A stretch of 7,571 bases of DNA from a virus (lineage: Duplodnaviria > Heunggongvirae > Uroviricota > Caudoviricetes), in IMG/VR virus record IMGVR_UViG_2529293138_000004, positions 1 through 7,571 of that record; one strand, written 5' to 3'. Of the stretch, positions 1 through 7,571 are shown one piece after another. Every line of letters starts with the position of its first letter. Positions within the stretch are counted from its first letter, which is position 1. The notes beneath the pieces are model-generated. The model was not told the origin of the DNA, made no database searches, and saw nothing but the letters and a program-made list of their open reading frames with translations. Both the position numbers and the translations under genes were made by a program.

Positions 1-1230
1 ATGAGCAGAGCACTTAACAAACTGAGTGATACACAGCTAAGGAAAATCAACGGCACACCCGCCCAAAAAACAGCCTTTCTTAATGACGGTGGAAACCTGA
101 GCGTCAGGCATTCAACCAGCGGCCTTTTAACCTGGTATTTCACTTACAGGGCCGGAACGGGAAGGGGGGCACCACCGGAACGCATTAAGCTGGGAAATTA
201 TCCTGATCTGAGCCTGAAATCAGCCAGGGAAAAAGCCGCCCAGTGTCGCGCATGGCTGGCTGAGGGGAAAAATCCACGTCATGAGATGAATTACACCGTA
301 CAGGAAGCGTTAAAGCCGGTAACGGTTGGCGATGCGCTCACCTACTGGCTTGAGTCGTACGCAAAGGAAAACCGCGTGGATTATGCCGCCCTGAAAAAGC
401 GCCTTAATAATCACGTAATACAGCACATTGGTGCTATGCCGCTGGATAAATGCGAGCTACGGCACTGGCTGGCCTGTTTTGACCAGGTGGCAAAGCGAAC
501 GCCTGTTACTGCCGGATTCTTGCTACAGACGTGCAAACAGGCGCTTAAGTTCTGCCGGAGGCGGCGCTATGCAATCAGCAACGTTCTTGATGATATGAGT
601 GTGGCGGACGTTGGGAAAAAACCGGATATAAGCGAGCGTGTCTTAAGCACCAAAGAACTGGGCGAATTATTGCAGGCTCTGGACAAAAAAATATTCTCCC
701 CCTACTACATCGCGTTAATCCGCCTCCTGATTGTTTTCGGATGCCGGACGGTAGAACTGAGGTTATCGGAGATCAGCGAGTGGGATTTTACCGAAATGCT
801 CTGGACCGTGCCGAAAGAACACAGCAAAACGAAGGTGGCAATATTCCGGCCCATACCGGAAGCAATACTGCCGTTCGTCACGCAGCTGGTGGAGCAGAAC
901 AGGCACACGGGCTTATTGCTGGGGGAAGTGAAACAGGAAACAAGCGTGTCGCAGTACGGCAGATTAGCGCACAGGAGGCTAAAACACCCTCACTGGTCAC
1001 TGCATGACATCCGGCGCACCTTTACAACGATGCTGAACGATTTAGGCGTGGATCCTCACGTCGTGGAGCAGCTTACAGGTCATCAGATGCCAGGGATGCA
1101 ACGAGTCTATAACCATTCCCGTTATCTGGATGCGAAACGTGACGCGCTGGATATGTGGACGGAGCGGTTAGGGATACTGGCGGGAACACATGAAAACGTA
1201 ACTACCTTGCCAATAGCCAGAGAAATATAA
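1..1230 (+). CDS. int: Tyrosine recombinase / phage integrase, P4-like family (409 aa)
   Basis: ORF 1-1230. N-terminal arm-type DNA-binding region (LSDTQLR..DGGNL..WYFTYR..KLGNYPDLSLKSAREKA), catalytic box I Arg (FGCRTVEL), HDIRRTF (H-x-x-R) and C-terminal Tyr (RVYNHSRYLD). The window starts exactly at the ATG, so the true 5' end and the attachment site upstream cannot be verified. Confidence 0.9.
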   Translation: MSRALNKLSDTQLRKINGTPAQKTAFLNDGGNLSVRHSTSGLLTWYFTYRAGTGRGAPPERIKLGNYPDLSLKSAREKAAQCRAWLAEGKNPRHEMNYTVQEALKPVTVGDALTYWLESYAKENRVDYAALKKRLNNHVIQHIGAMPLDKCELRHWLACFDQVAKRTPVTAGFLLQTCKQALKFCRRRRYAISNVLDDMSVADVGKKPDISERVLSTKELGELLQALDKKIFSPYYIALIRLLIVFGCRTVELRLSEISEWDFTEMLWTVPKEHSKTKVAIFRPIPEAILPFVTQLVEQNRHTGLLLGEVKQETSVSQYGRLAHRRLKHPHWSLHDIRRTFTTMLNDLGVDPHVVEQLTGHQMPGMQRVYNHSRYLDAKRDALDMWTERLGILAGTHENVTTLPIAREI

Positions 1231-1590
1231 TTTTTTTTGCGATTTTTCAGGATGCGGACAACGTGAAACAACTAGACACAACGACGAACAACAAGGAACA
1301 AAATGGAACAACGGGTTAAAAATTAGCCATCGTGATAACCATTTGATTTTTATAGGTGTACTGTTTTTTTATACACTGGCGAATCACTCTTAAAAATATG
1401 TAAAAAAGGCGTAAAAGTAAAATTTTATGCCTTTGCATCATAATGAATTAAAAGAGTTTTTATTCTCATTCCCCCTGCTTCTGTAAAACGACCTCCGCCA
1501 GTGTTTGCCATTCCACAAACACCCTGACACAATCAGACACAACCCAATAATCCACCCAATGACTCTTTAATAAACAACAAAGGGGGAATT
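1231..1590 (+). promoter_or_regulatory. AT-rich int-alpA intergenic region with phased A/C-rich direct repeats; presumed alpA promoter/operator region
   Basis: GGAACAA at 1295-1301 and 1305-1311; GACACAA at 1275-1281, 1526-1532 and 1536-1542 (two pairs phased at 10 bp); AT-rich stretch 1380-1460 with -10-like hexamers. No promoter position could be fixed confidently. Confidence 0.3.
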
Positions 1591-1779
1591 GTGTTAAGCA
1601 CAGATCGCTTTATACGTGAAAAAGAATGTCAGCAACTTACAGGCCTGAGCCGCTCATGTCGGTACCGCCTGGAAAAAGCCGGACAATTTCCATCACGGCG
1701 TAAGCTCGGCGGTCGTTCCGTTGGCTGGTCTTTATCCGAAGTTCTGGCATGGAAGGACAGCTGCGAGGCAGTTCACTAA
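1591..1779 (+). CDS. alpA: AlpA/Vis-family prophage transcriptional regulator (62 aa, GTG start)
   Basis: GTG at 1591 preceded by AGGGGGAA Shine-Dalgarno (1581-1588). Helix-turn-helix signature LTGLSRSCRYRLEKAGQFP..KLGGRSVGWSLSEVLAW is typical of AlpA-type regulators found next to P4-like integrases. Confidence 0.85.
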   Translation: MLSTDRFIREKECQQLTGLSRSCRYRLEKAGQFPSRRKLGGRSVGWSLSEVLAWKDSCEAVH

Positions 1780-1785
1780 TCAGGC

Positions 1786-1804
1786 TGGCGGCACACAGCC
1801 GCCA
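1786..1804 (+). other. GC-rich hairpin (7-bp stem TGGCGGC/GCCGCCA, 5-nt loop) just after alpA; no U-tract
   Basis: Perfect inverted repeat 1786-1792 / 1798-1804; the following sequence is not T-rich, so it is not a canonical intrinsic terminator. Confidence 0.3.
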
Positions 1805-1831
1805 CCCATCCACTAATACAGAGATCTAACC

Positions 1832-2131
1832 ATGAATACTGGATATTCTCCCGAACAAGGGCGGGGCTTCGTTCGTCCTGAAAAACAGAATCTGCAAAAT
1901 TTTGCCGAAATTATTCCGGTTATTTCCGGCCTTACTGGCGGGAGTGAAACCAATATTGTTAACGACAGAGCGTTGCAGATGTTTGATGATAAAAAGGGAG
2001 TAAATTTAACTTACACCCCTGACGGCAATCAGAATATGAGCATTATCTCTGAGTCAGGTTTCTACAAACTAATAAAAACAAAAAGCGCCCCGTTGCCGGA
2101 GCGCCTTTGTGAACAATTAACCTGCTGCACA
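1832..2131 (+). pseudogene. BRO-N domain-like ORF (antirepressor-associated N-terminal domain); no in-frame stop until 3232, likely frameshifted or degraded
   Basis: Residues ~20-95 (NIVNDRALQMFDDKKGVNL..GNQNMSIISESGFYKLIKTKSAPLPERL) match the BRO-N pattern (..LDDDEKG....MTVINESGLYSLILRSRKPEAKKF..). Downstream the same frame becomes Cys/Ser-rich low-quality sequence antisense to a better small gene. An A8 tract at 2201-2208 lies inside the ORF; removing one A would terminate at TGA 2232-2234. Confidence 0.4.
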
Positions 2132-2319
2132 AAAAATAAATATGAGCAGTGGGATTATATCATCCAGGTGACGAAGCGCCACAATTGCCGGATAACAGGC
2201 AAAAAAAAGGCGACCGCAAAATGGTCGCCAGTGAGAACAAAGGAAATCAAACGCGTCACCAACAATGCCACATTTGCGGCTGGTGGGCAATGTGATCAGT
2301 GTGCTGGCTTGCTGGTGGG

Positions 2320-2499
2320 CTATTCCTGTTCTTTGGCCTTGCGACGCTGGCGGCGTTTGATCTCGCCTTTTGCGGCAGTAACTAAAAAACCAGCGGTACT
2401 TTCGCCAGGTTCTTTAAGTTGCTCAATATCATCCATTACTTCATGTGGGATTCTGACAGTTGTCATTTGTGATTTTGCGTTCTTTGCACCAGTTGCCAT
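2320..2499 (-). CDS. Small ribbon-helix-helix (Arc/CopG-like) putative DNA-binding protein, 59 aa
   Basis: Minus-strand ATG (complement of 2497-2499) preceded by AGGAG at 8-nt spacing; product MATGAKNAKSQMTTVRIPHEVMDDIEQLKEPGESTAGFLVTAAKGEIKRRQRRKAKEQE has an RHH-like beta-strand (TVRIP) followed by two helices. The longer track ORF (to 2667) adds a non-protein-like extension. Confidence 0.5.
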   Translation of the reverse strand: MATGAKNAKSQMTTVRIPHEVMDDIEQLKEPGESTAGFLVTAAKGEIKRRQRRKAKEQE

Positions 2500-2566
2500 T
2501 TCTGGATCTCCTAAAAATTGGTGTATGCCAGTATACGCAAAAAAAATGATAAAAAAAGGCTTGAAG

Positions 2567-2611
2567 TGTATTTCACCAGTGAGTAAATTAAAAAGCAAAG
2601 GTGAAATACAC
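2567..2611. promoter_or_regulatory. Perfect 12-bp inverted repeat GTGTATTTCACC / GGTGAAATACAC with 21-bp spacer; candidate operator upstream of the RHH gene
   Basis: Arms at 2567-2578 and 2600-2611; a third GTGTAT half-site at 2521-2526; a -10-like TATACT on the minus strand (complement of 2527-2532) between the repeat and the RHH start. Confidence 0.4.
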
Positions 2612-2764
2612 CTAAAAGAGCAACGCCCCGCAGTGCTCGCAACACATGCAGGGCGTCTAACCACCAACGATAGAAAGAGTATCGAGGTAGCTATGAGAAA
2701 TCATACCACACACCCGCAAGGGCGGGACTCGCACAACCTGAATAAAGCGGGTATGAAAAACCTG

Positions 2765-2794
2765 TTGATCGCCACTGCCAGCCAGGGCTATGAT
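2765..2794 (+). promoter_or_regulatory. Candidate sigma70 promoter (TTGATC-N18-TATGAT) facing the icd-like region
   Basis: -35-like TTGATC 2765-2770, 18-nt spacer, -10-like TATGAT 2789-2794. Sequence match only. Confidence 0.3.
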
Positions 2795-2856
2795 TCATGT
2801 GCACCTCATAAAACGGGTGCCGGGATTACCACCCCGCTGATGTCCAGGGCGATACA

Positions 2857-2878
2857 GACGCCGCACGCGTCTTTTTTT
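2857..2878 (+). terminator. Intrinsic terminator-like hairpin (GACGC-cgcac-GCGTC) followed by T7
   Basis: Stem 2857-2861 / 2867-2871, then TTTTTTT 2872-2878. It sits in the leader between the candidate promoter and the structured RNA/icd region. Confidence 0.5.
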
Positions 2879-2907
2879 GTATCGGCGCACACGCACACCT
2901 TAACAAT

Positions 2908-2987
2908 GGTGGGCTGTACGGGGCCGACTTCGGTCGGGCTGGTCACCTTGGACGCCAGTTGTGGTAACCCTGTACAGTCCACCGCCA
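2908..2987 (+). ncRNA. Candidate tRNA-like structured RNA (P1 c4 / P4 CI antisense-RNA-like) immediately upstream of the first Icd-like ORF
   Basis: 12-bp closing stem 2908-2919 (GGTGGGCTGTAC) with 2972-2983 (GTACAGTCCACC, one G-U) followed by GCCA (2984-2987), enclosing a cUUCGg tetraloop hairpin (2924-2937) and a second hairpin (2941-2969). Structure is by eye, not computed. Confidence 0.3.
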
Positions 2988-3043
2988 GCGAGCTTACCAC
3001 CTCCGGCGGTGGGGATATCCCAACGTCTAAGGAGGCTGCCAAC

Positions 3044-3232
3044 ATGGCTACTACGCCTACCCTTATACATTCTCAAACTGCCTTTATCTGGCGCTTTATC
3101 ATCTTTGGCGCGTCAGAATCCCAAATCATCCACGTCACCGCCTGGACAGAACGCGAAGCGCGTAACCATTGCCCGTCCGGTTGTGTCGCTGTATTCGCCG
3201 CCCGTATTCGTCAGGGGTCACATCATGCTTAA
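3044..3232 (+). CDS. Icd-like small protein (host cell-division-inhibitor Icd / Ash-family-like), copy A, 62 aa
   Basis: ATG 3044 preceded by AAGGAGG (3029-3035). Product MATTPTLIHSQTAFIWRF...TEREARNH...VFAARIRQGSHHA, with the W-R-F ... TERE ... FAARIR pattern recalled for Icd-like proteins of P4-type elements. A longer in-frame annotation (from ATG 2906) is possible, but the strong internal SD favours the short form. Confidence 0.65.
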   Translation: MATTPTLIHSQTAFIWRFIIFGASESQIIHVTAWTEREARNHCPSGCVAVFAARIRQGSHHA

Positions 3233-3518
3233 AAACCGCTTGCAAAAAATTATCACGGGGCTGTATGCTTCCCCCGTCGCCCACATGGCGACCGGGTTTG
3301 ACAGCCTGAATAACATAGCGGACAGCCGCTTATATTCCGATATGCGGTTTTTTTGTGTCCGTAAACCTACCCATACCCGCATTATGGCGGGGCGTAACGG
3401 GGGAGCCTTTGCGCTCGCTGGTTTCTATGTTGCCAGTCTGTCAACCCTGTTACGTCTCGCCACCATGTTTGACAGCGTAGTAGCGAGACTCCTTACATCA
3501 AACATAGGAGCCTTTCAC

Positions 3519-3689
3519 ATGGCTGTATCCGCACGCCCTTACTTTGTCTGGCGCTTTATGCAGTGCCAGGAAAAACAAACCTCACTCTTTACCGTCACGG
3601 CAACAACAGAACGCGAAGCCCGCGCCCAGTTGCCGTACGCCCATCTGATTTTCGCCGCCCGTATTCGTCAGGAGGTGTGCCATGATTAA
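3519..3689 (+). CDS. Icd-like small protein, copy B (paralog of 3044-3232), 56 aa
   Basis: ATG 3519 preceded by AGGAG (3506-3510). Product MAVSARPYFVWRF...TEREARAQ...IFAARIRQEVCHD. Exact 22-bp repeat TTCGCCGCCCGTATTCGTCAGG at 3194-3215 and 3651-3672, and ACAGAACGCGAAGC shared with copy A. An in-frame upstream ATG at 3225 gives an alternative 154-aa form. Confidence 0.65.
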   Translation: MAVSARPYFVWRFMQCQEKQTSLFTVTATTEREARAQLPYAHLIFAARIRQEVCHD

Positions 3690-4038
3690 CCTGTCACTTA
3701 TCGACCTTAACCGCATCCAGTTTCGTGAGAAATTTACCTGGCAGCTACTGGTCAATGTAGAGAATGGACGCGTGGTAAGTAATTATCACCTGCCGGATGG
3801 TGCAATTGCCGGAAGCGTTGAAGCATTGCTGGAGCTGGCAGAACGTGCGCGACTGATTAAGCCGTTAACGTGCCATCACGATGATGATCTGCATTTTACC
3901 GGACGTATGATGAGCAATTATGAAAACGGCGTTGAAGCATCCCGCGAACGTCTGCATGATGATTACTGTTTCGGCACATTGCCGGAATTTATCGAATTGC
4001 TGACCAGTTGCGGTTATCAGGTCATTCAGGGGGGGTAA
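3682..4038 (+). CDS. Hypothetical protein, 118 aa
   Basis: ATG 3682 overlaps the icdB stop (ATGATTAA) and is preceded by AGGAGG (3671-3675), indicating translational coupling. Position after c4/icd matches the ant slot of P1 immI, but no motif was recognised. Confidence 0.75.
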   Translation: MINLSLIDLNRIQFREKFTWQLLVNVENGRVVSNYHLPDGAIAGSVEALLELAERARLIKPLTCHHDDDLHFTGRMMSNYENGVEASRERLHDDYCFGTLPEFIELLTSCGYQVIQGG

Positions 4039-4040
4039 AC

Positions 4041-4292
4041 ATGCGTGATGATCGTTTTAATTCCCTGAAACAGGAATTTTCCGGCGTGTCTTATGATGCG
4101 GGTGATGCGCTTTTATCAATATCTGAAATTATGCGGGTGGCTTTTTTCTTTCTTTGCACTGATGAGCACAGGGATACAGGACTAAATATTCTTGATATCG
4201 CCTCTGATTATGCTGATTACGTGGCTGAATTTAATTTAAGAGAAAAACAGTTATTACGCGAACAGAATAAAACGCCTTCCACCGGAGAATAA
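4041..4292 (+). CDS. Hypothetical protein, 83 aa
   Basis: ATG 4041 two nt after the upstream stop, preceded by a G-rich SD (4028-4035). The track's longer form starts at TTG 4008 inside the upstream gene and is less likely. Confidence 0.6.
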   Translation: MRDDRFNSLKQEFSGVSYDAGDALLSISEIMRVAFFFLCTDEHRDTGLNILDIASDYADYVAEFNLREKQLLREQNKTPSTGE

Positions 4293-4297
4293 AAATA

Positions 4298-4585
4298 ATG
4301 AAACTTAAATATTCTGGCTTAACTGCCAGCGGCACCGCTCGGCCTGAAATCCGTAACGGCGATATTTACCGCGATAAATATGGCGGCATGGTAACGATTA
4401 AAGGCGTGGCAGAACGGCGCATCACCTACCGCCGTGAAGGTTACGAATATGATTGCGTGATGCCTGTTTATCAATTCCGGCGTGATTTCACGCTGGTAGG
4501 CCATCGTAAAGCCGTTAATCAGAAACGTGCAACAGGTTATATCCGCAAAATCCGTGAAATGCTGGTCGCAGGGGGTAAGAAATGA
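4298..4585 (+). CDS. Hypothetical small protein, 95 aa (tentatively DUF4222-like: YRD and GxV motifs)
   Basis: ATG 4298 with GGAGA upstream; contains IYRDKYGGMVTIKGV. The family assignment is from memory and is low-certainty. Confidence 0.7.
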   Translation: MKLKYSGLTASGTARPEIRNGDIYRDKYGGMVTIKGVAERRITYRREGYEYDCVMPVYQFRRDFTLVGHRKAVNQKRATGYIRKIREMLVAGGKK

Positions 4586-5979
4586 AACTGGCACCGAACG
4601 TAAAACGATTACCGAAAGATAAATACACCGATGCGATTATTTTTGCGGGTATTGATGCTCACTCATTCGCAGAGCATTACATCATTGCACAGGCCAAAAA
4701 AGCAGGCGATCCAGTCCCTCCCGTTTATCTGGGGCGTTATCAGTTAAGCGAACTGGATAACCTCCAGATTGTTGATGATGGGCGATACAGGGCGACGGTG
4801 ATACGCGCCGGAAATATTGAAGAGCCGCAGCTGTTAACCATCGCCACGAAACTGGCGATCGCCGGAGTCCAGGAGGCGCGGCTACTTTCTGAAAATTTCG
4901 AATTGCTGGAGGAATGGAGCGACCAGCTTCCACGGCTTAGGGAGACATGGGAACGCGGGGAAAGCCTGAGCAACCAGCGAAAAACCACGCTACCAATGAG
5001 CGTGGGATCTGCCGGATACGACACACAACTTGATTACGTGGTTAAGGGAATTATTCCGGCTGTATCGCTTTGCAGCATATACGGGGCGAGCGGTTCCTAT
5101 AAATCATTCCTTGCCGGATCGTGGGCGTGTCACGTTTCCACTGGCCGCCAGTGGGGATGCCGCAGGGTGGCGCATGGCGCTGTTCTCTATGTGGTTGGTG
5201 AAGGCGGTATCGGCGTTCCTCGTCGTGTAAAAGCCTGGGAGGTTGTGCACGGTGAGCAGGTGAAAAATCTGTATCTGGTAAACCGTCCCATCTTTCCGGC
5301 TGCCCCGCTTGATGTTGATGAAATGGTTATCGCTGCCCGTCAGGTGGAACGGGAAACGGGTAAACCTGTACGCATGATTATTCTGGATACGCTGGCGCGG
5401 TGCTTTGGTGGCAATGATGAAAATGATTCCCGTGATATGGGGGCGTTTATCCGTGGGTGTGACGAACTGAAACGACGCACAGGGGCCACGGTGCTGGTGG
5501 TTCACCATTCCGGCAAGGATGAAACAAAGGGAGCGCGTGGTTCCAGTGCATTTCGTGCTTCGCTGGATGCTGAATACCGGATACGCAGGGAGGACGCAGG
5601 AAGCGAAGCCCTGGTTATCTCATGCACCAAAATGAAGGATGCGGAGGAACTCAAAGAAGCCGCATATGACTTACGCGTGGTGGAGCTTTTTACCGACGCT
5701 GACGGGGAGTTAATCACGTCGCTGGTGGTGGTGGATAAGCCGCGCCCTCCCGTTGAACTGGAGCGCATCGAGGAGGCTGGCAACAAGACGGAAAACCATA
5801 CCGCGCTATGGGGATGCATACGTTCACGCACACAGAACGGCGACAAGTGCACGATCCCGCTGTTACGTGATGACATGAAAAAACTGGGGTACGAAATGAA
5901 AAACTTCCGGCGCTGGCTGTACAAGCTGGAAAAAGACAGGGTTATTCGTATCGATGGGGATGATGTAGCGCCGCTATAA
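4582..5979 (+). CDS. RecA-fold replicative ATPase/helicase-like protein (AAA_25 / RepA-like), 465 aa
   Basis: ATG 4582 overlaps the upstream stop (ATGA). P-loop region IYGASGSYKSFLAG, Walker B/sensor region MIILDTLARCFGGNDENDSRDMGAFIRGCDELKRRTGATVLVVHHSGKD, matching the pattern of AAA_25 family replication helicases. N-terminal ~150 aa unassigned; no primase domain evident. Confidence 0.85.
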   Translation: MKLAPNVKRLPKDKYTDAIIFAGIDAHSFAEHYIIAQAKKAGDPVPPVYLGRYQLSELDNLQIVDDGRYRATVIRAGNIEEPQLLTIATKLAIAGVQEARLLSENFELLEEWSDQLPRLRETWERGESLSNQRKTTLPMSVGSAGYDTQLDYVVKGIIPAVSLCSIYGASGSYKSFLAGSWACHVSTGRQWGCRRVAHGAVLYVVGEGGIGVPRRVKAWEVVHGEQVKNLYLVNRPIFPAAPLDVDEMVIAARQVERETGKPVRMIILDTLARCFGGNDENDSRDMGAFIRGCDELKRRTGATVLVVHHSGKDETKGARGSSAFRASLDAEYRIRREDAGSEALVISCTKMKDAEELKEAAYDLRVVELFTDADGELITSLVVVDKPRPPVELERIEEAGNKTENHTALWGCIRSRTQNGDKCTIPLLRDDMKKLGYEMKNFRRWLYKLEKDRVIRIDGDDVAPL

Positions 5980-6156
5980 AGTGAGGTGCAAAAGCGAGGT
6001 GTATAGAAGGAGGGCCAAAATTAGACCGCTACCCCTCACTTTTCGGCCTGTATACATCCTCAAAAGTGAGGGGCAAAAAAATACTTATGAAACACACACA
6101 TAGAAAAAGCGAAAATCTCAAGCGAGACGGAGCCAGACACTTTAAAAAGTGAGGCG
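5978..6156. repeat. Iteron array AAAG(T/C)GAGG(T/G)G (direct and inverted copies) with an AT-rich stretch; candidate replication origin
   Basis: Copies at 5978-5988, 5991-6001, 6062-6073, 6144-6156, inverted copy 6032-6043 (forming a 12-bp inverted repeat with 6062-6073), and degenerate copies at 6104-6115 and 6119-6130. Lies directly downstream of the replication ATPase gene. Confidence 0.5.
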
Positions 6157-6178
6157 AAAAACTGAGAGTTTGCGAGAA

Positions 6179-6430
6179 ATGAACAAAATGCGTAGAGACA
6201 GAACAGAGCCAAAATATAAAGCGTTAGACATGACAGAGCACGCTTTAAAGGTGGCAATCAGAACGATAGACCGCCACGCGGGGGAAGGATACGCGAAGGA
6301 ACATCCCGACATGATAAGCGCATTCATGACCACAGCAGCGGCAAACTTTGCCACGCTGACAGAACGGGAGATTGCCGAAGCGGAACAGGTAACAACCATC
6401 AACGTTAAAACCGGAGAGCAGACAGCATGA
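6179..6430 (+). CDS. Hypothetical protein (~83 aa; start ambiguous among GTG 6149, ATG 6179, 6188, 6230)
   Basis: ORF ends with a TGA overlapping the ATG of the SSB gene (ATGA at 6427-6430), suggesting coupling; no recognisable motif and weak SD candidates. Confidence 0.5.
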   Translation: MNKMRRDRTEPKYKALDMTEHALKVAIRTIDRHAGEGYAKEHPDMISAFMTTAAANFATLTEREIAEAEQVTTINVKTGEQTA

Positions 6431-6933
6431 CAGCACAGATAGCGGCTTACGGACGGCTGGTGGCTGACCCGCAGTTAAAGACCACCAGCAAGGGTACACA
6501 AATGACGATGGCGAGTATGGCGGTCCCCCTTCCGTGCAGCCAGGCAGATGACGGAGCGGCGACGATGTGGTTATCCGTCATGGCGTTTGGCAGACAGGCC
6601 GACGCACTGGCAAAACACCACAAAGGCGAACTGGTGAGCGTGGCGGGTAACATGCAGGTAAGTCAGTGGACAGGCCAGAACGGCGAAACGCGGCAGGGCT
6701 GGCAGGTTATCGCAGACAGCATAATCAGTGCGAGAACGGCGCGACCTGGCGGCAAAAAAGGCCAGCAGGGGCAGGCTACTGATGCACTGAACAGGGCAAA
6801 ACAACAGGCGGGTAACGATGATCCGTACGGGATAACATACCGTTTTAAGCAACGAGTAACAGAAGCCGGAGAAGTCCGGCTTTTTTATGCCCCAAAAAAA
6901 GCCCGGAGGGTCTTATCGGGCTTTTGCATATGA
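6427..6933 (+). CDS. ssb: Single-stranded DNA-binding protein (SSB-like OB fold), 168 aa with atypical C-terminus
   Basis: GGAGAG SD at 6414-6419. The pattern IAAYGRLVADPQLKTT..MWLSVMAFGRQADALAKHHKGELVSVAGNMQVSQWTGQNGETRQGWQVIADSI parallels E. coli SSB ([66 protein letters not shown]). The C-terminal ~25 codons read through two terminator-like hairpins. Confidence 0.8.
   Translation: MTAQIAAYGRLVADPQLKTTSKGTQMTMASMAVPLPCSQADDGAATMWLSVMAFGRQADALAKHHKGELVSVAGNMQVSQWTGQNGETRQGWQVIADSIISARTARPGGKKGQQGQATDALNRAKQQAGNDDPYGITYRFKQRVTEAGEVRLFYAPKKARRVLSGFCI
6865..6886 (+). terminator. Intrinsic terminator (GCCGGA-gaag-TCCGGC followed by T6)
   Basis: Stem 6865-6870 / 6875-6880, loop 6871-6874, T-tract 6881-6886; located inside the 3' end of the SSB ORF as currently delimited. 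Confidence 0.6.
6898..6924. terminator. Second hairpin (AAAGCCCG...CGGGCTTT) flanked by an A-tract and a T-tract; possible bidirectional terminator
   Basis: Stem 6898-6905 / 6917-6924 with an 11-nt loop; A7 upstream would provide a U-tract for minus-strand transcripts. Confidence 0.35.
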
Positions 6934-7003
6934 GGTTTTTTTGGTGCGCTGACACACATGATCGGGATAATAATTTCATAATTTGCAACATAACTCAATA
7001 TTA

Positions 7004-7052
7004 TTGCACAAAATGCAATCATGATTATAATCATGACTGGATGAACATCCAG
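7004..7052 (+). promoter_or_regulatory. Consensus-like sigma70 promoter (TTGCAC-N16-TATAAT) with overlapping palindromic operators
   Basis: -35 at 7004-7009; perfect -10 TATAAT at 7026-7031 sitting at the centre of a perfect 18-bp palindrome TCATGATTATAATCATGA (7019-7036); a second inverted repeat CTGGATG-aa-CATCCAG at 7037-7052 around the expected transcription start. Confidence 0.5.
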
Positions 7053-7087
7053 TTATGATTTTTTAAGTCGAAGAGGAATTTCTTACT

Positions 7088-7270
7088 ATGGCTGAAGAGA
7101 AAAAAGGCGGTGTTTCGGTGTACATAAGCTCCGACATCGTGGAGGCGCTCAAGGAACGCCACCAGCAGAACGTAAAGCAGGCATTGCGGCAGGACTTGAT
7201 CCACTGGCGATGGTTGAGCCGTCAACAGGCTGGCAGGTGCGCGCCTATTTACGTGCGGCGCTGGGCATGA
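7088..7270 (+). CDS. Small protein upstream of the capsid gene (60 aa as an intact ORF; possible frameshifted ~68-aa product ending at 7293)
   Basis: ATG 7088 with GAGG upstream. The N-terminal half uses preferred codons in this frame; from about 7170 the other forward frame (ending TAA 7291-7293, abutting the capsid ATG) uses preferred codons (AGIAAGLDPLAMVEPSTGWQVRAYLRAALGMNQTHGGE), while the original frame turns Arg/Trp-rich. Confidence 0.4.
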   Translation: MAEEKKGGVSVYISSDIVEALKERHQQNVKQALRQDLIHWRWLSRQQAGRCAPIYVRRWA

Positions 7271-7293
7271 ATCAGACTCATGGGGGTGAATAA

Positions 7294-7571
7294 TGGCAGG
7301 CAAAGCAACGGCACTTACCACTAATCAGCTTTTCACGTACATGAATCGCGGGGATATTGCGGAATTTAAATTCAGTCCGCTGTTTACCACGCTGTTTTTC
7401 CCGAACGTGGCGACATTCAGCACCCAAAACATCATGCTGGATACCCTGGACATTGAAGAAGTCACTATGTCGGCGTTTTGTTCGCCTATGGTTGGCAGCC
7501 AGGTACAGCGCGATAAAGGGTACGAAACCAGCACAATCAAACCTGGCTACATGAAGCCAAAGCACGAAATC
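7294..7571 (+). CDS. Major capsid protein, lambda gpE family (N-terminal 92 codons; truncated by window end)
   Basis: ATG 7294 preceded by GGGGG (7282-7286). Translation MAGKATALTTNQLFTYMNRGDIAEFKFSPLFTTLFFPNVATFSTQNIMLDTLDIEEVTMSAFCSPMVGSQVQRDKGYETSTIKPGYMKPKHEI parallels lambda E (..FKFDPLFLRLFF..VNMALYVSPIVSGEVIRSRGGSTSEFTPGYVKPKHEV). Not in the supplied ORF track because it has no stop within the window. Confidence 0.85.

Follow-up and report, generated by a model that had tools for sequence, protein, structure and literature searches.

The window analysed here is a stretch of 7,571 nucleotides that carries a tyrosine integrase gene at 1-1230, an AlpA gene at 1591-1779 and, on the minus strand, a divergent YlcI/YnfO-family gene at 2320-2499. 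These are followed on the plus strand by two tandem units, each consisting of a leader, a small RNA and a short Icd-like ORF. To the right of the second Icd-like ORF lie ORFs at 3682-4038 and 4041-4292, the latter with no family match, and then, as the Pfam context shows, a DUF4222 gene, an AAA_25 gene and a gene for SSB. The E. coli homologue of the AAA_25 protein is annotated as 'DNA primase family protein'. Several NCBI assemblies have this integrase as well, beside pepT and a JmjC/RoxA-type gene. This gene order is that of Gram-negative PICI/P4-like satellites.

The first unit (unit A) begins at a sigma-70-like promoter at 2765-2794 (TTGATC, 18-nt spacer, TATGAT), which agrees with the consensus at 9 of 12 positions. 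It is the sole promoter-like site on the plus strand in 2200-3750, in a scan whose matches were no more numerous than in shuffled sequences, and the last base of its -10 hexamer lies 7 nt upstream of an IsrK/seqA-like leader at 2801-2877; presumably it is the promoter of the entire leader/C4/icd transcript. The leader holds two putative decoy sites, a1 (TTACCAC, 2826-2832), which is presented in a hairpin loop, and b1 (TGTCCAGGG, 2841-2849), and an intrinsic terminator formed by a stem at 2856-2872 and a T-run at 2873-2878. The small RNA under study, here called copy A, starts 30 nt beyond that terminator and occupies 2908-2986, its two ends being predicted by homology to the c4 RNA of phage P1. 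Two target sites follow, a2 (TTACCAC, 2994-3000) and b2 (CGTCTAAGG, 3024-3032), the second of which overlaps the Shine-Dalgarno sequence AAGGAGG (3029-3035) of a 62-aa Icd-like ORF at 3044-3232 (NCBIfam NF033153, phage_ICD_like, 59.8 bits against a threshold of 25). This ORF is presumably the gene repressed by copy A. An ATG at 3225 overlaps its last codons. Since the terminator and copy A are only 30 nt apart and the sole promoter-like site lies upstream of the leader, the precursor of copy A would have to arise by read-through of the terminator.

An Rfam scan of the whole window gave four relevant matches, all on the plus strand. Copy A matched the C4 antisense RNA family RF01695 at 2902-2989 with 75.3 bits against a gathering score of 45, and the match was full-length, covering model positions 1-87 of 87. 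A second C4 match, copy B, was found at 3380-3467 (73.2 bits against 45). The leader of unit A matched isrK (RF01394) at 2801-2877 with 65.0 bits against 50, and that of unit B matched c4-a1b1 (RF03163) at 3263-3312 with 46.8 bits against 46.7. Another isrK match, at 3276-3354, stayed below threshold (36.5 bits against 50), so that the IsrK/seqA-like class, with both its score and a terminator directly upstream of C4, applies to the leader of unit A, and unit B falls below it. Matches to ncr1175, sau-6072 and sR5 (E 0.46-0.94, far under their thresholds) were taken as chance.

Folding of copy A agreed with this assignment. The 80-mer 2908-2987 has a minimum free energy of -45.9 kcal/mol in ViennaRNA, compared with -31.6 +/- 3.3 kcal/mol for dinucleotide shuffles (z = -4.31), and none of 200 shuffles was as stable. 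An RNA from the minus strand was considered and rejected: the opposite strand folds more weakly (-32.6 kcal/mol, z = -2.1), and the G-U pairs of the plus strand would turn into A-C mismatches in it. A previous reading of the letters alone (hereafter the sequence-only reading) had described a 12-bp stem of 2908-2919 with 2972-2983; that stem is real at those positions, but it is just the outer part of a continuous helix of 16 bp (2908-2923/2968-2983, with two G-U pairs), to which U2907-G2984 could add a 17th pair. The closing helix, or P1 stem, was recovered also when 2890-3000 was folded. Inside it stands the hairpin P2 at 2924-2937 (CCGAC-UUCG-GUCGG), whose cUUCGg cap had been noticed before, and a second hairpin, P3, with a 5-bp stem (2938-2942/2955-2959). 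The latter had been proposed with a 15-nt loop; it is present, with a loop of 12 nt at 2943-2954 in the covariance-model structure. The single-sequence minimum-free-energy structure has a different fold in place of P3, for which the support comes from the family model; among the homologues, four of the five P3 pairs are invariant. Between P3 and the 3′ strand of the P1 stem runs the junction a′ (GUGGUAA, 2961-2967), the loop of P3 carries the element b′ with the core CCUUGGACG, and the helix is followed, as had been seen, by a discriminator-like G2984 and by CCA at 2985-2987. U2907 is position -1 of the RNA.

The 3′ GCCA and the stable helix had been taken as signs of a tRNA-like minihelix, with an acceptor/T-stem stack as the minimal substrate of RNase P. 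Integrase-bearing islands often lie at tRNA genes, and so the element could be thought of as tRNA-derived or tRNA-like (the remnant of an integration site, for example, or a mimic of a minihelix), or else as a chance GC-rich hairpin or terminator. The helix is continuous over 16-17 bp, though, and is not divided into 7+5 bp as the stack would be. We rejected the tRNA-like reading after ARAGORN detected 0 tRNA or tmRNA genes, nor any tRNA-like gene at this place, and Rfam gave no tRNA or tmRNA match at E <= 1 in the window. Copy A also lies 1.7 kb inside the island and not at its edge, it has no T-run on its 3′ side, and the covariation of its pairs together with the co-variation of its targets, both described below, rule out a chance hairpin. 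We consider an origin of this sort extremely improbable.

The sequence-only reading had regarded the second unit as the weaker one, with a long-range pairing of TTGACAG with CTGTCAA as its main structure, and had supposed that copy A may be the functional RNA. Both suppositions are contradicted by the analysis. Unit B contains a complete C4 RNA, copy B, with a predicted mature form of 79 nt at 3386-3464. Its minimum free energy is -45.2 kcal/mol with z = -5.9, which betters the fold of copy A, its closing helix extends over 17-18 bp, and its parts follow the same order: P1 stem 3386-3402/3445-3461, P2 3403-3416, P3 stem 3417-3421/3433-3437, loop b′ 3422-3432 and junction a′ (CUGUCAA) 3438-3444. 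U3385 is at position -1, and the stem is followed by A3462 and by CCA at 3463-3465. The supposed pairing partners are instead a target site and an antisense element of this RNA, namely a1 (TTGACAG, 3298-3304), which lies in a hairpin loop, and a′ itself. The leader of unit B spans 3263-3354 and has the c4-a1b1 motif, a b1 site (TAACATAG, 3311-3318) complementary to b′ of copy B, and a terminator-like hairpin at 3326-3347 followed by seven T at 3348-3354. Downstream of copy B come a2 (TTGACAG, 3469-3475), which is complementary to a′, and b2 (AACATAGGAG, 3501-3510), which overlaps the Shine-Dalgarno sequence AGGAG (3506-3510) of a 56-aa Icd-like ORF at 3519-3689 (NF033153, 56.8 bits against 25); the end of this ORF overlaps the ATG (3682) of the ORF at 3682-4038. 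Thus, copy B is as good a C4 RNA as copy A and has its own cognate targets. Tandem copies of A and B type, about 478 nt apart, occur in seven further loci (L001, L003, L011, L013, L023, L024 and L025).

The sequence-only reading had also suggested that the loops of copy A could carry antisense sequence, and this proved right when the downstream mRNA was searched. The junction a′ at 2961-2967 is the exact 7-nt complement of a2, and the loop segment 2946-2954 is a 9-nt complement of b2, with one G-U pair. In the leader, a1 and b1 are likewise complementary to a′ and b′ of copy A. The loop of copy A is calculated to form a duplex of -13.9 kcal/mol with its own b2 and of -3.3 kcal/mol with the b2 of unit B. 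Altogether, cognate duplexes in the window have energies of -13.9 and -16.3 kcal/mol (A loop) and -9.6 kcal/mol (B loop), compared with -2.9 to -5.8 kcal/mol for cross-unit duplexes.

To see how the RNA and its targets vary, we collected loci via their Icd-like proteins, 80 from viral contigs and 2 from genomes, and added E. coli and P1-like records. As MAFFT had misaligned the 3′ half of copies A and B, we started the covariance model from the Rfam structure and seven A-type sequences without gaps, and then rebuilt it from 40 matches. This model detected 40 copies of C4, among them 18 distinct ones. Among the viral-contig loci, C4 copies are confined to L006-L026, L065, L073-L075, L077 and L078, and no C4 was found within 1.2 kb of the remoter Icd-like genes (47-54% identity). 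Standard pairs fill 97.7% of the cells of the structure, compared with 36-50% when the 3′ partners were slid by 1-3 columns, and double-sided (compensatory) changes are seen in 12 of the 27 pairs. None of 500 shuffles reached the observed covariation score, a control that overstates the significance because the homologues are all enterobacterial and make a shallow set (effective sequence number 1.66). The alignment was, moreover, fitted to the model. With this covariation and the full-length Rfam match, the assignment to the C4 family is borne out.

The body of the RNA is almost invariant among the homologues, and the variation is concentrated in a′ and b′, which are hypervariable, with 8 distinct junctions a′ and 13 distinct loops b′. 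Each copy has its own complements, at fixed offsets, downstream (at about +2 to +5 and +33 to +36) and upstream (at about -73 to -83), and in most copies a second upstream complement is found at -56 to -70. The cognate runs are 9-12 nt between loop and Shine-Dalgarno site and 7-8 nt between junction and proximal site, and the non-cognate means are 5.5 and 4.2 nt, respectively. The cognate minimum was reached by 3.4% of non-cognate pairs of loop and Shine-Dalgarno site and by 0.4% of those of junction and proximal site; over the four comparisons the share was 0.4-7%. In this way, 18 specificity combinations are represented, in which the targets co-vary with a′ and b′. That the targets follow the antisense elements is the strongest evidence here for an antisense mechanism with element-specific immunity, as judged from sequence comparison.

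The same variation bears on the question of whether the region is rather part of a protein gene of the 'Ash family' or Icd-like type, in which the hairpin would be an incidental structure of the mRNA. The plus-strand frames 1832-3232 (466 codons) and 2961-3689 (242 codons) are open through it. The translation of about 2801-3070 is matched by Pfam Phage_ASH with E = 5.7e-9, and RefSeq has 'ash family protein' or long 'Icd-like' CDSs over the homologous RNAs. An AUG at 2906-2908 shares the frame of icd, which stays open between the two in 28 of 32 copies, and orf45, the counterpart in Gifsy-1, was shown to be translated (PMC4825925). On the other hand, compensatory changes in base pairs speak against a coding constraint, and the variation lies in the two target-matching elements and lacks a codon-periodic pattern. 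In the remaining 4 of the 32 copies the frame is broken and the RNA is intact. The Phage_ASH match begins at the predicted transcription start and crosses the intrinsic terminator. Nor do the annotations agree with each other: gene callers in other assemblies place 'Phage_ASH' products of 466, 179 or 159 aa on the same element, or there is only the 62-aa Icd-like ORF, and several such CDSs are flagged as partial pseudogenes in RefSeq. We therefore regard a purely protein-coding origin of the structure as very unlikely. A short leader ORF overlapping the RNA would be an addition to the RNA reading and not an alternative to it.

Taken together, copy A combines a full-model score, a three-helix fold with covarying pairs, downstream targets a2 and b2 of which b2 lies over the ribosome-binding site, upstream sites a1 and b1, and an icd-type gene downstream. 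Every defining feature of a C4 RNA that a sequence allows to be tested is present in unit A, and repression in trans is predicted from the complementarity. We conclude that 2908-2987 very probably encodes a C4/CI-type antisense immunity RNA, the first of a tandem pair situated where a PICI/P4-like satellite island has its early control region. The RNA is real, but it is of a kind already known, a curated family in its usual genetic setting.

The proximity to icd and the likeness to P1 c4 and P4 CI had already been pointed out in the sequence-only reading, together with maturation by RNase P, and the first two of these are now supported by the Rfam match and by the Icd-like nature of the next ORF. 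As for maturation, C4 is cut by RNase P at the 5′ end of its P1 stem, and its b′ occludes the ribosome-binding site (PMC5320573, citing Hartmann et al. 1995 for the processing). In the covariance-model alignment, the annotated 5′ end of phage P1 c4, the first G after the capital U of uuaUGGUGGGG, aligns exactly with the step from U2907 to G2908, and its annotated 3′ end reads ...GCC-A-CC. All 18 distinct copies have U at -1, G at +1 and, following the stem, N-CC. By the analogy with P1, cuts directly after U2907 and U3385 are predicted, which would make G2908 and G3386 the 5′ ends of mature RNAs of about 79 nt, ending after G-CC in copy A and A-CC in copy B.

How C4 could act in this island is suggested by the work on P1, P4 and Gifsy-1. 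Transcription would start near 2765-2794, and most transcripts would stop at the IsrK-like terminator (2856-2878), with read-through transcripts running on into C4 and the icd-like gene. The host RNase P, recognising the long helix and the G-CC(A) end, would then cut between U2907 and G2908 and set free a stable product of about 79 nt. Its a′ could pair with a2 (2994-3000), and its b′ with b2 (3024-3032), on other transcripts of the same operon; the pairing at b2 would hide the Shine-Dalgarno sequence of the Icd-like ORF, so that its translation would stop. Downstream transcription may then end prematurely, as in P1 and P4, and the replication genes of the island would be kept off. The sites a1 and b1 in the short IsrK-like RNA might serve as competitors or decoys able to titrate C4. 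Copy B would repeat the scheme at a second checkpoint with non-overlapping specificity, and the hypervariable a′ and b′ would give each element an immunity specificity of its own.

It is conceivable that C4 works here chiefly in the manner of P4 CI or as proposed for STnc1160, in that pairing with the upstream, seqA-like a1/b1 and with the downstream sites would control termination at or beyond the IsrK-like terminator, and not by blocking ribosomes. The island is satellite-like in its int, alpA, DUF4222, AAA_25 and SSB genes, and in both units an intrinsic terminator is placed between a1/b1 and C4. The mechanism of P4 CI and its analogy to IsrK are described in PMC4825925 and PMC10111431. However, the target of the loop overlaps a GGAG-type Shine-Dalgarno sequence 8-12 nt before an ATG in 27 of the 27 copies listed, which is the geometry of P1. 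We hold a mainly termination-based mode to be possible but the less favoured of the two. The two modes do not exclude each other. Translational repression in P1 was reportedly found by Biere, Citron and Schuster in 1992 to cause premature termination. Termination of the P4 style is thus a variant of the best explanation, that of a C4 antisense RNA, rather than an alternative to it.

The closest known system is found in phages P1 and P7, in their immI operon (c4-icd-ant). The record for P1 lists the promoters P1c4 and P2c4, putative a1 and b1, a 77-nt c4, an a2 that starts 4 nt after c4, b2 and icd. In the nomenclature of P1, b′ is the loop of the second hairpin and a′ the single-stranded junction on its 3′ side. 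The b2 of P1 lies directly upstream of icd, spans a Shine-Dalgarno-like GUGAGG and is annotated as the target for repressing translation of icd/ant. The units in our window share with P1 the three-helix fold, the length, the strand logic, the order a1-b1-C4-a2-b2-icd, the 5′ end in which U is followed by GG, and the N-CC; the offset of a2 after C4 in unit A is that of the annotated a2 of P1. Copy B has, moreover, the same a′ and a2 as P1 (CUGUCAA/TTGACAG), and the leader of unit B is highly similar to that of P1. Unlike P1, which is a plasmid prophage with one module, the present element is a chromosomal satellite-like island with two tandem modules, its b′ loops differ from that of P1, and icd is followed by small ORFs, DUF4222, AAA_25 and SSB instead of an ant1/ant2 antirepressor.

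The satellite P4 offers a second comparison. Its CI RNA, with seqA, seqB and seqC, is also a small RNA from the leader of a satellite replication operon that pairs both upstream and downstream, a relation taken from PMC4825925 and PMC10111431, and IsrK has been called a structural homologue of SeqA (PMC4825925). CI differs in acting via transcription termination of an untranslated leader (PMC4825925), whereas the target here overlaps the Shine-Dalgarno sequence of an Icd-like ORF, as in P1. In the Salmonella prophage Gifsy-1, read-through transcripts of the IsrK terminator are processed to STnc1160, which is about 80 nt long, has complementarity to IsrK and was likened to P4 CI/seqA (PMC4825925). 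Our Rfam scan of Gifsy-1 gave isrK at 79.3 bits, c4-a1b1 at 48.1 bits and, at the position of orf45 between isrK and the antirepressor gene, C4 at 69 bits. The arrangement of promoter, terminated IsrK and an RNA of about 80 nt processed from read-through, in the order IsrK-orf45/STnc1160-anrP, resembles that predicted for unit A; counted from the predicted start, the window has an AUG at about 106-107 nt, and the first AUG of orf45 is at A107. The difference is that Gifsy-1 leads to the antirepressor anrP via a 45-codon ORF with its own stop, and here the frame continues into the Icd-like ORF. Co-expression of orf45/STnc1160 strengthened the toxicity of IsrK (PMC4825925), a result that does not fit a simple decoy model.

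Among satellites, the Rfam C4 and isrK profiles match several Gram-negative PICIs and detect relatives of P4 CI/seqA, according to parts of PMC10111431. The Gram-negative and helper-embedded PICIs, as far as those parts of the same account describe them, are like our island in int, alpA, a primase/SSB zone and the same Rfam families in the regulatory zone; targets, specificity and tandem copies, which were analysed for this window, do not figure in them. The window adds detail to the picture of C4 and isrK in PICIs and not a new kind of RNA.

What novelty is left is speculative, and concerns a coupling of RNase P to the start of a leader frame and the presence of two orthogonal tandem modules. 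The conserved AUGs at 2906-2908 and 3384-3386 are placed so that the predicted cleavage would fall between their U and G. The cut by RNase P might therefore act as a switch: the unprocessed transcript would allow a leader frame of 45-46 codons to be translated into the Icd-like ORF, bypassing the Shine-Dalgarno sequence under C4 control, and processing would destroy the start codon and make the repressor at once. Joined with this, the tandem modules would form an immunity with two locks. Each lock has one element in common with P1-type phages, for the a′ of copy B is that of P1, and the core of b′ of copy A is that of phage vB_EcoM-673R5; if the two-lock reading were true, a P1-like phage or a co-resident satellite might open or close one of the locks. 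We consider this joint reading unlikely, and put it forward as a suggestion.

We would like to point out that these C4 RNAs are left unmarked by RefSeq and by gene callers, and that 'Ash family' or over-long 'Icd-like' proteins are called across them instead. As Phage_ASH matches the translation of an RNA locus, the family may rest in part on translated RNA. The practical value of finding C4 in this island lies in annotation, and the co-varying a′ and b′, together with their targets, could help in predicting shared immunity among satellites and phages.

The second C4 antisense RNA of the window, C4-B (3380-3467), belongs to a complete module, with a leader carrying the upstream complements a1/b1 (3263-3354), C4-B itself, and the downstream complements a2/b2 followed by the Icd-like ORF B (3469-3689). 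Copy A, the first C4 RNA, is found 478 nt upstream, and the specificities of the two copies do not overlap. The same tandem layout was found in L001, L003, L011, L013, L023, L024 and L025 of the comparison loci.

The inferred RNase P site falls inside a conserved AUG, between its U and G, in both copies (2906-2908 and 3384-3386). In 28 of 32 copies, that of a P1-like phage included, this AUG shares its reading frame with the Icd-like start codon 45-46 codons downstream and no stop intervenes, and in Gifsy-1 the first AUG of orf45 is at the equivalent position. Processing at the inferred site would remove this start codon.

Two unusually long + frames, open over 466 codons (1832-3232) and 242 codons (2961-3689), span the isrK and C4 RNAs, and one of them lies antisense to the YlcI/YnfO gene (loci covered: the window, L086-L089, L001 and L003). 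Upstream of C4, the open frame reaches 700-1040 nt in several distinct elements (L001, L003, L073, L077), which is not easily put down to chance. Translation of ∼2801-3070, exactly the isrK-plus-C4 stretch, gives the match to Pfam Phage_ASH. Public annotations over this stretch are of 'Ash family' or over-long 'Icd-like' proteins, with no ncRNA among them.

At the end of both Icd-like ORFs, the start codon of the next frame overlaps (ATGCTTAA at 3225-3232 and ATGATTAA at 3682-3689), which suggests that the two frames are translationally coupled, as in icd-ant of P1; the frame presumed to be coupled to ORF A spans all of unit B. C4 was not detected within 1.2 kb upstream of the more distant Icd-like genes in viral contigs (L027-L064, L066-L072, L076 and L079-L085; 47-54% identity to ORF B), and C4 control of Icd-like genes is therefore not universal.

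In Gifsy-1 (L092, NC_010392; Rfam matches at 34131-34329, minus strand), C4 matched with 69 bits at the published position of 'orf45'/STnc1160, immediately 3' of isrK, which is itself overlapped by a c4-a1b1 match. Since c4-a1b1 (3263-3312) also overlaps isrK (3276-3354) in unit B, the two Rfam families cover overlapping sequence; despite this, isrK is not a member of clan CL00128.

The window represents the left arm of a PICI/P4-like satellite, with genes for an integrase, AlpA, YlcI/YnfO, DUF4222, an AAA_25 protein and SSB, and with two C4-icd modules between YlcI/YnfO and DUF4222. The incomplete ORF at 7293-7571, which extends past the window end, had no NCBIfam match; we take it to resemble the N-terminus of a lambda-type major capsid protein. 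The island, examined in the window (1-7571) and in L086-L089, adjoins pepT and a JmjC/RoxA-like gene. As the top E. coli match to 2700-3700 is merely 89.5% identical, the host is probably a different enterobacterium or a rare E. coli lineage.

The C4 specificities look mosaic in make-up when compared with L090 (23394-23430) and L002 (2101-2260). The junction a' and its target a2 of copy B (CUGUCAA at 3438-3444, TTGACAG at 3469-3475) are identical in phage P1, and the P3-loop b' core and b2 of copy A (CCUUGGACG at 2946-2954, CGUCUAAGG at 3024-3032) are identical in the P1-like phage vB_EcoM-673R5; in each comparison the other element differs. The island and P1-like phages might conceivably show some degree of partial cross-talk.
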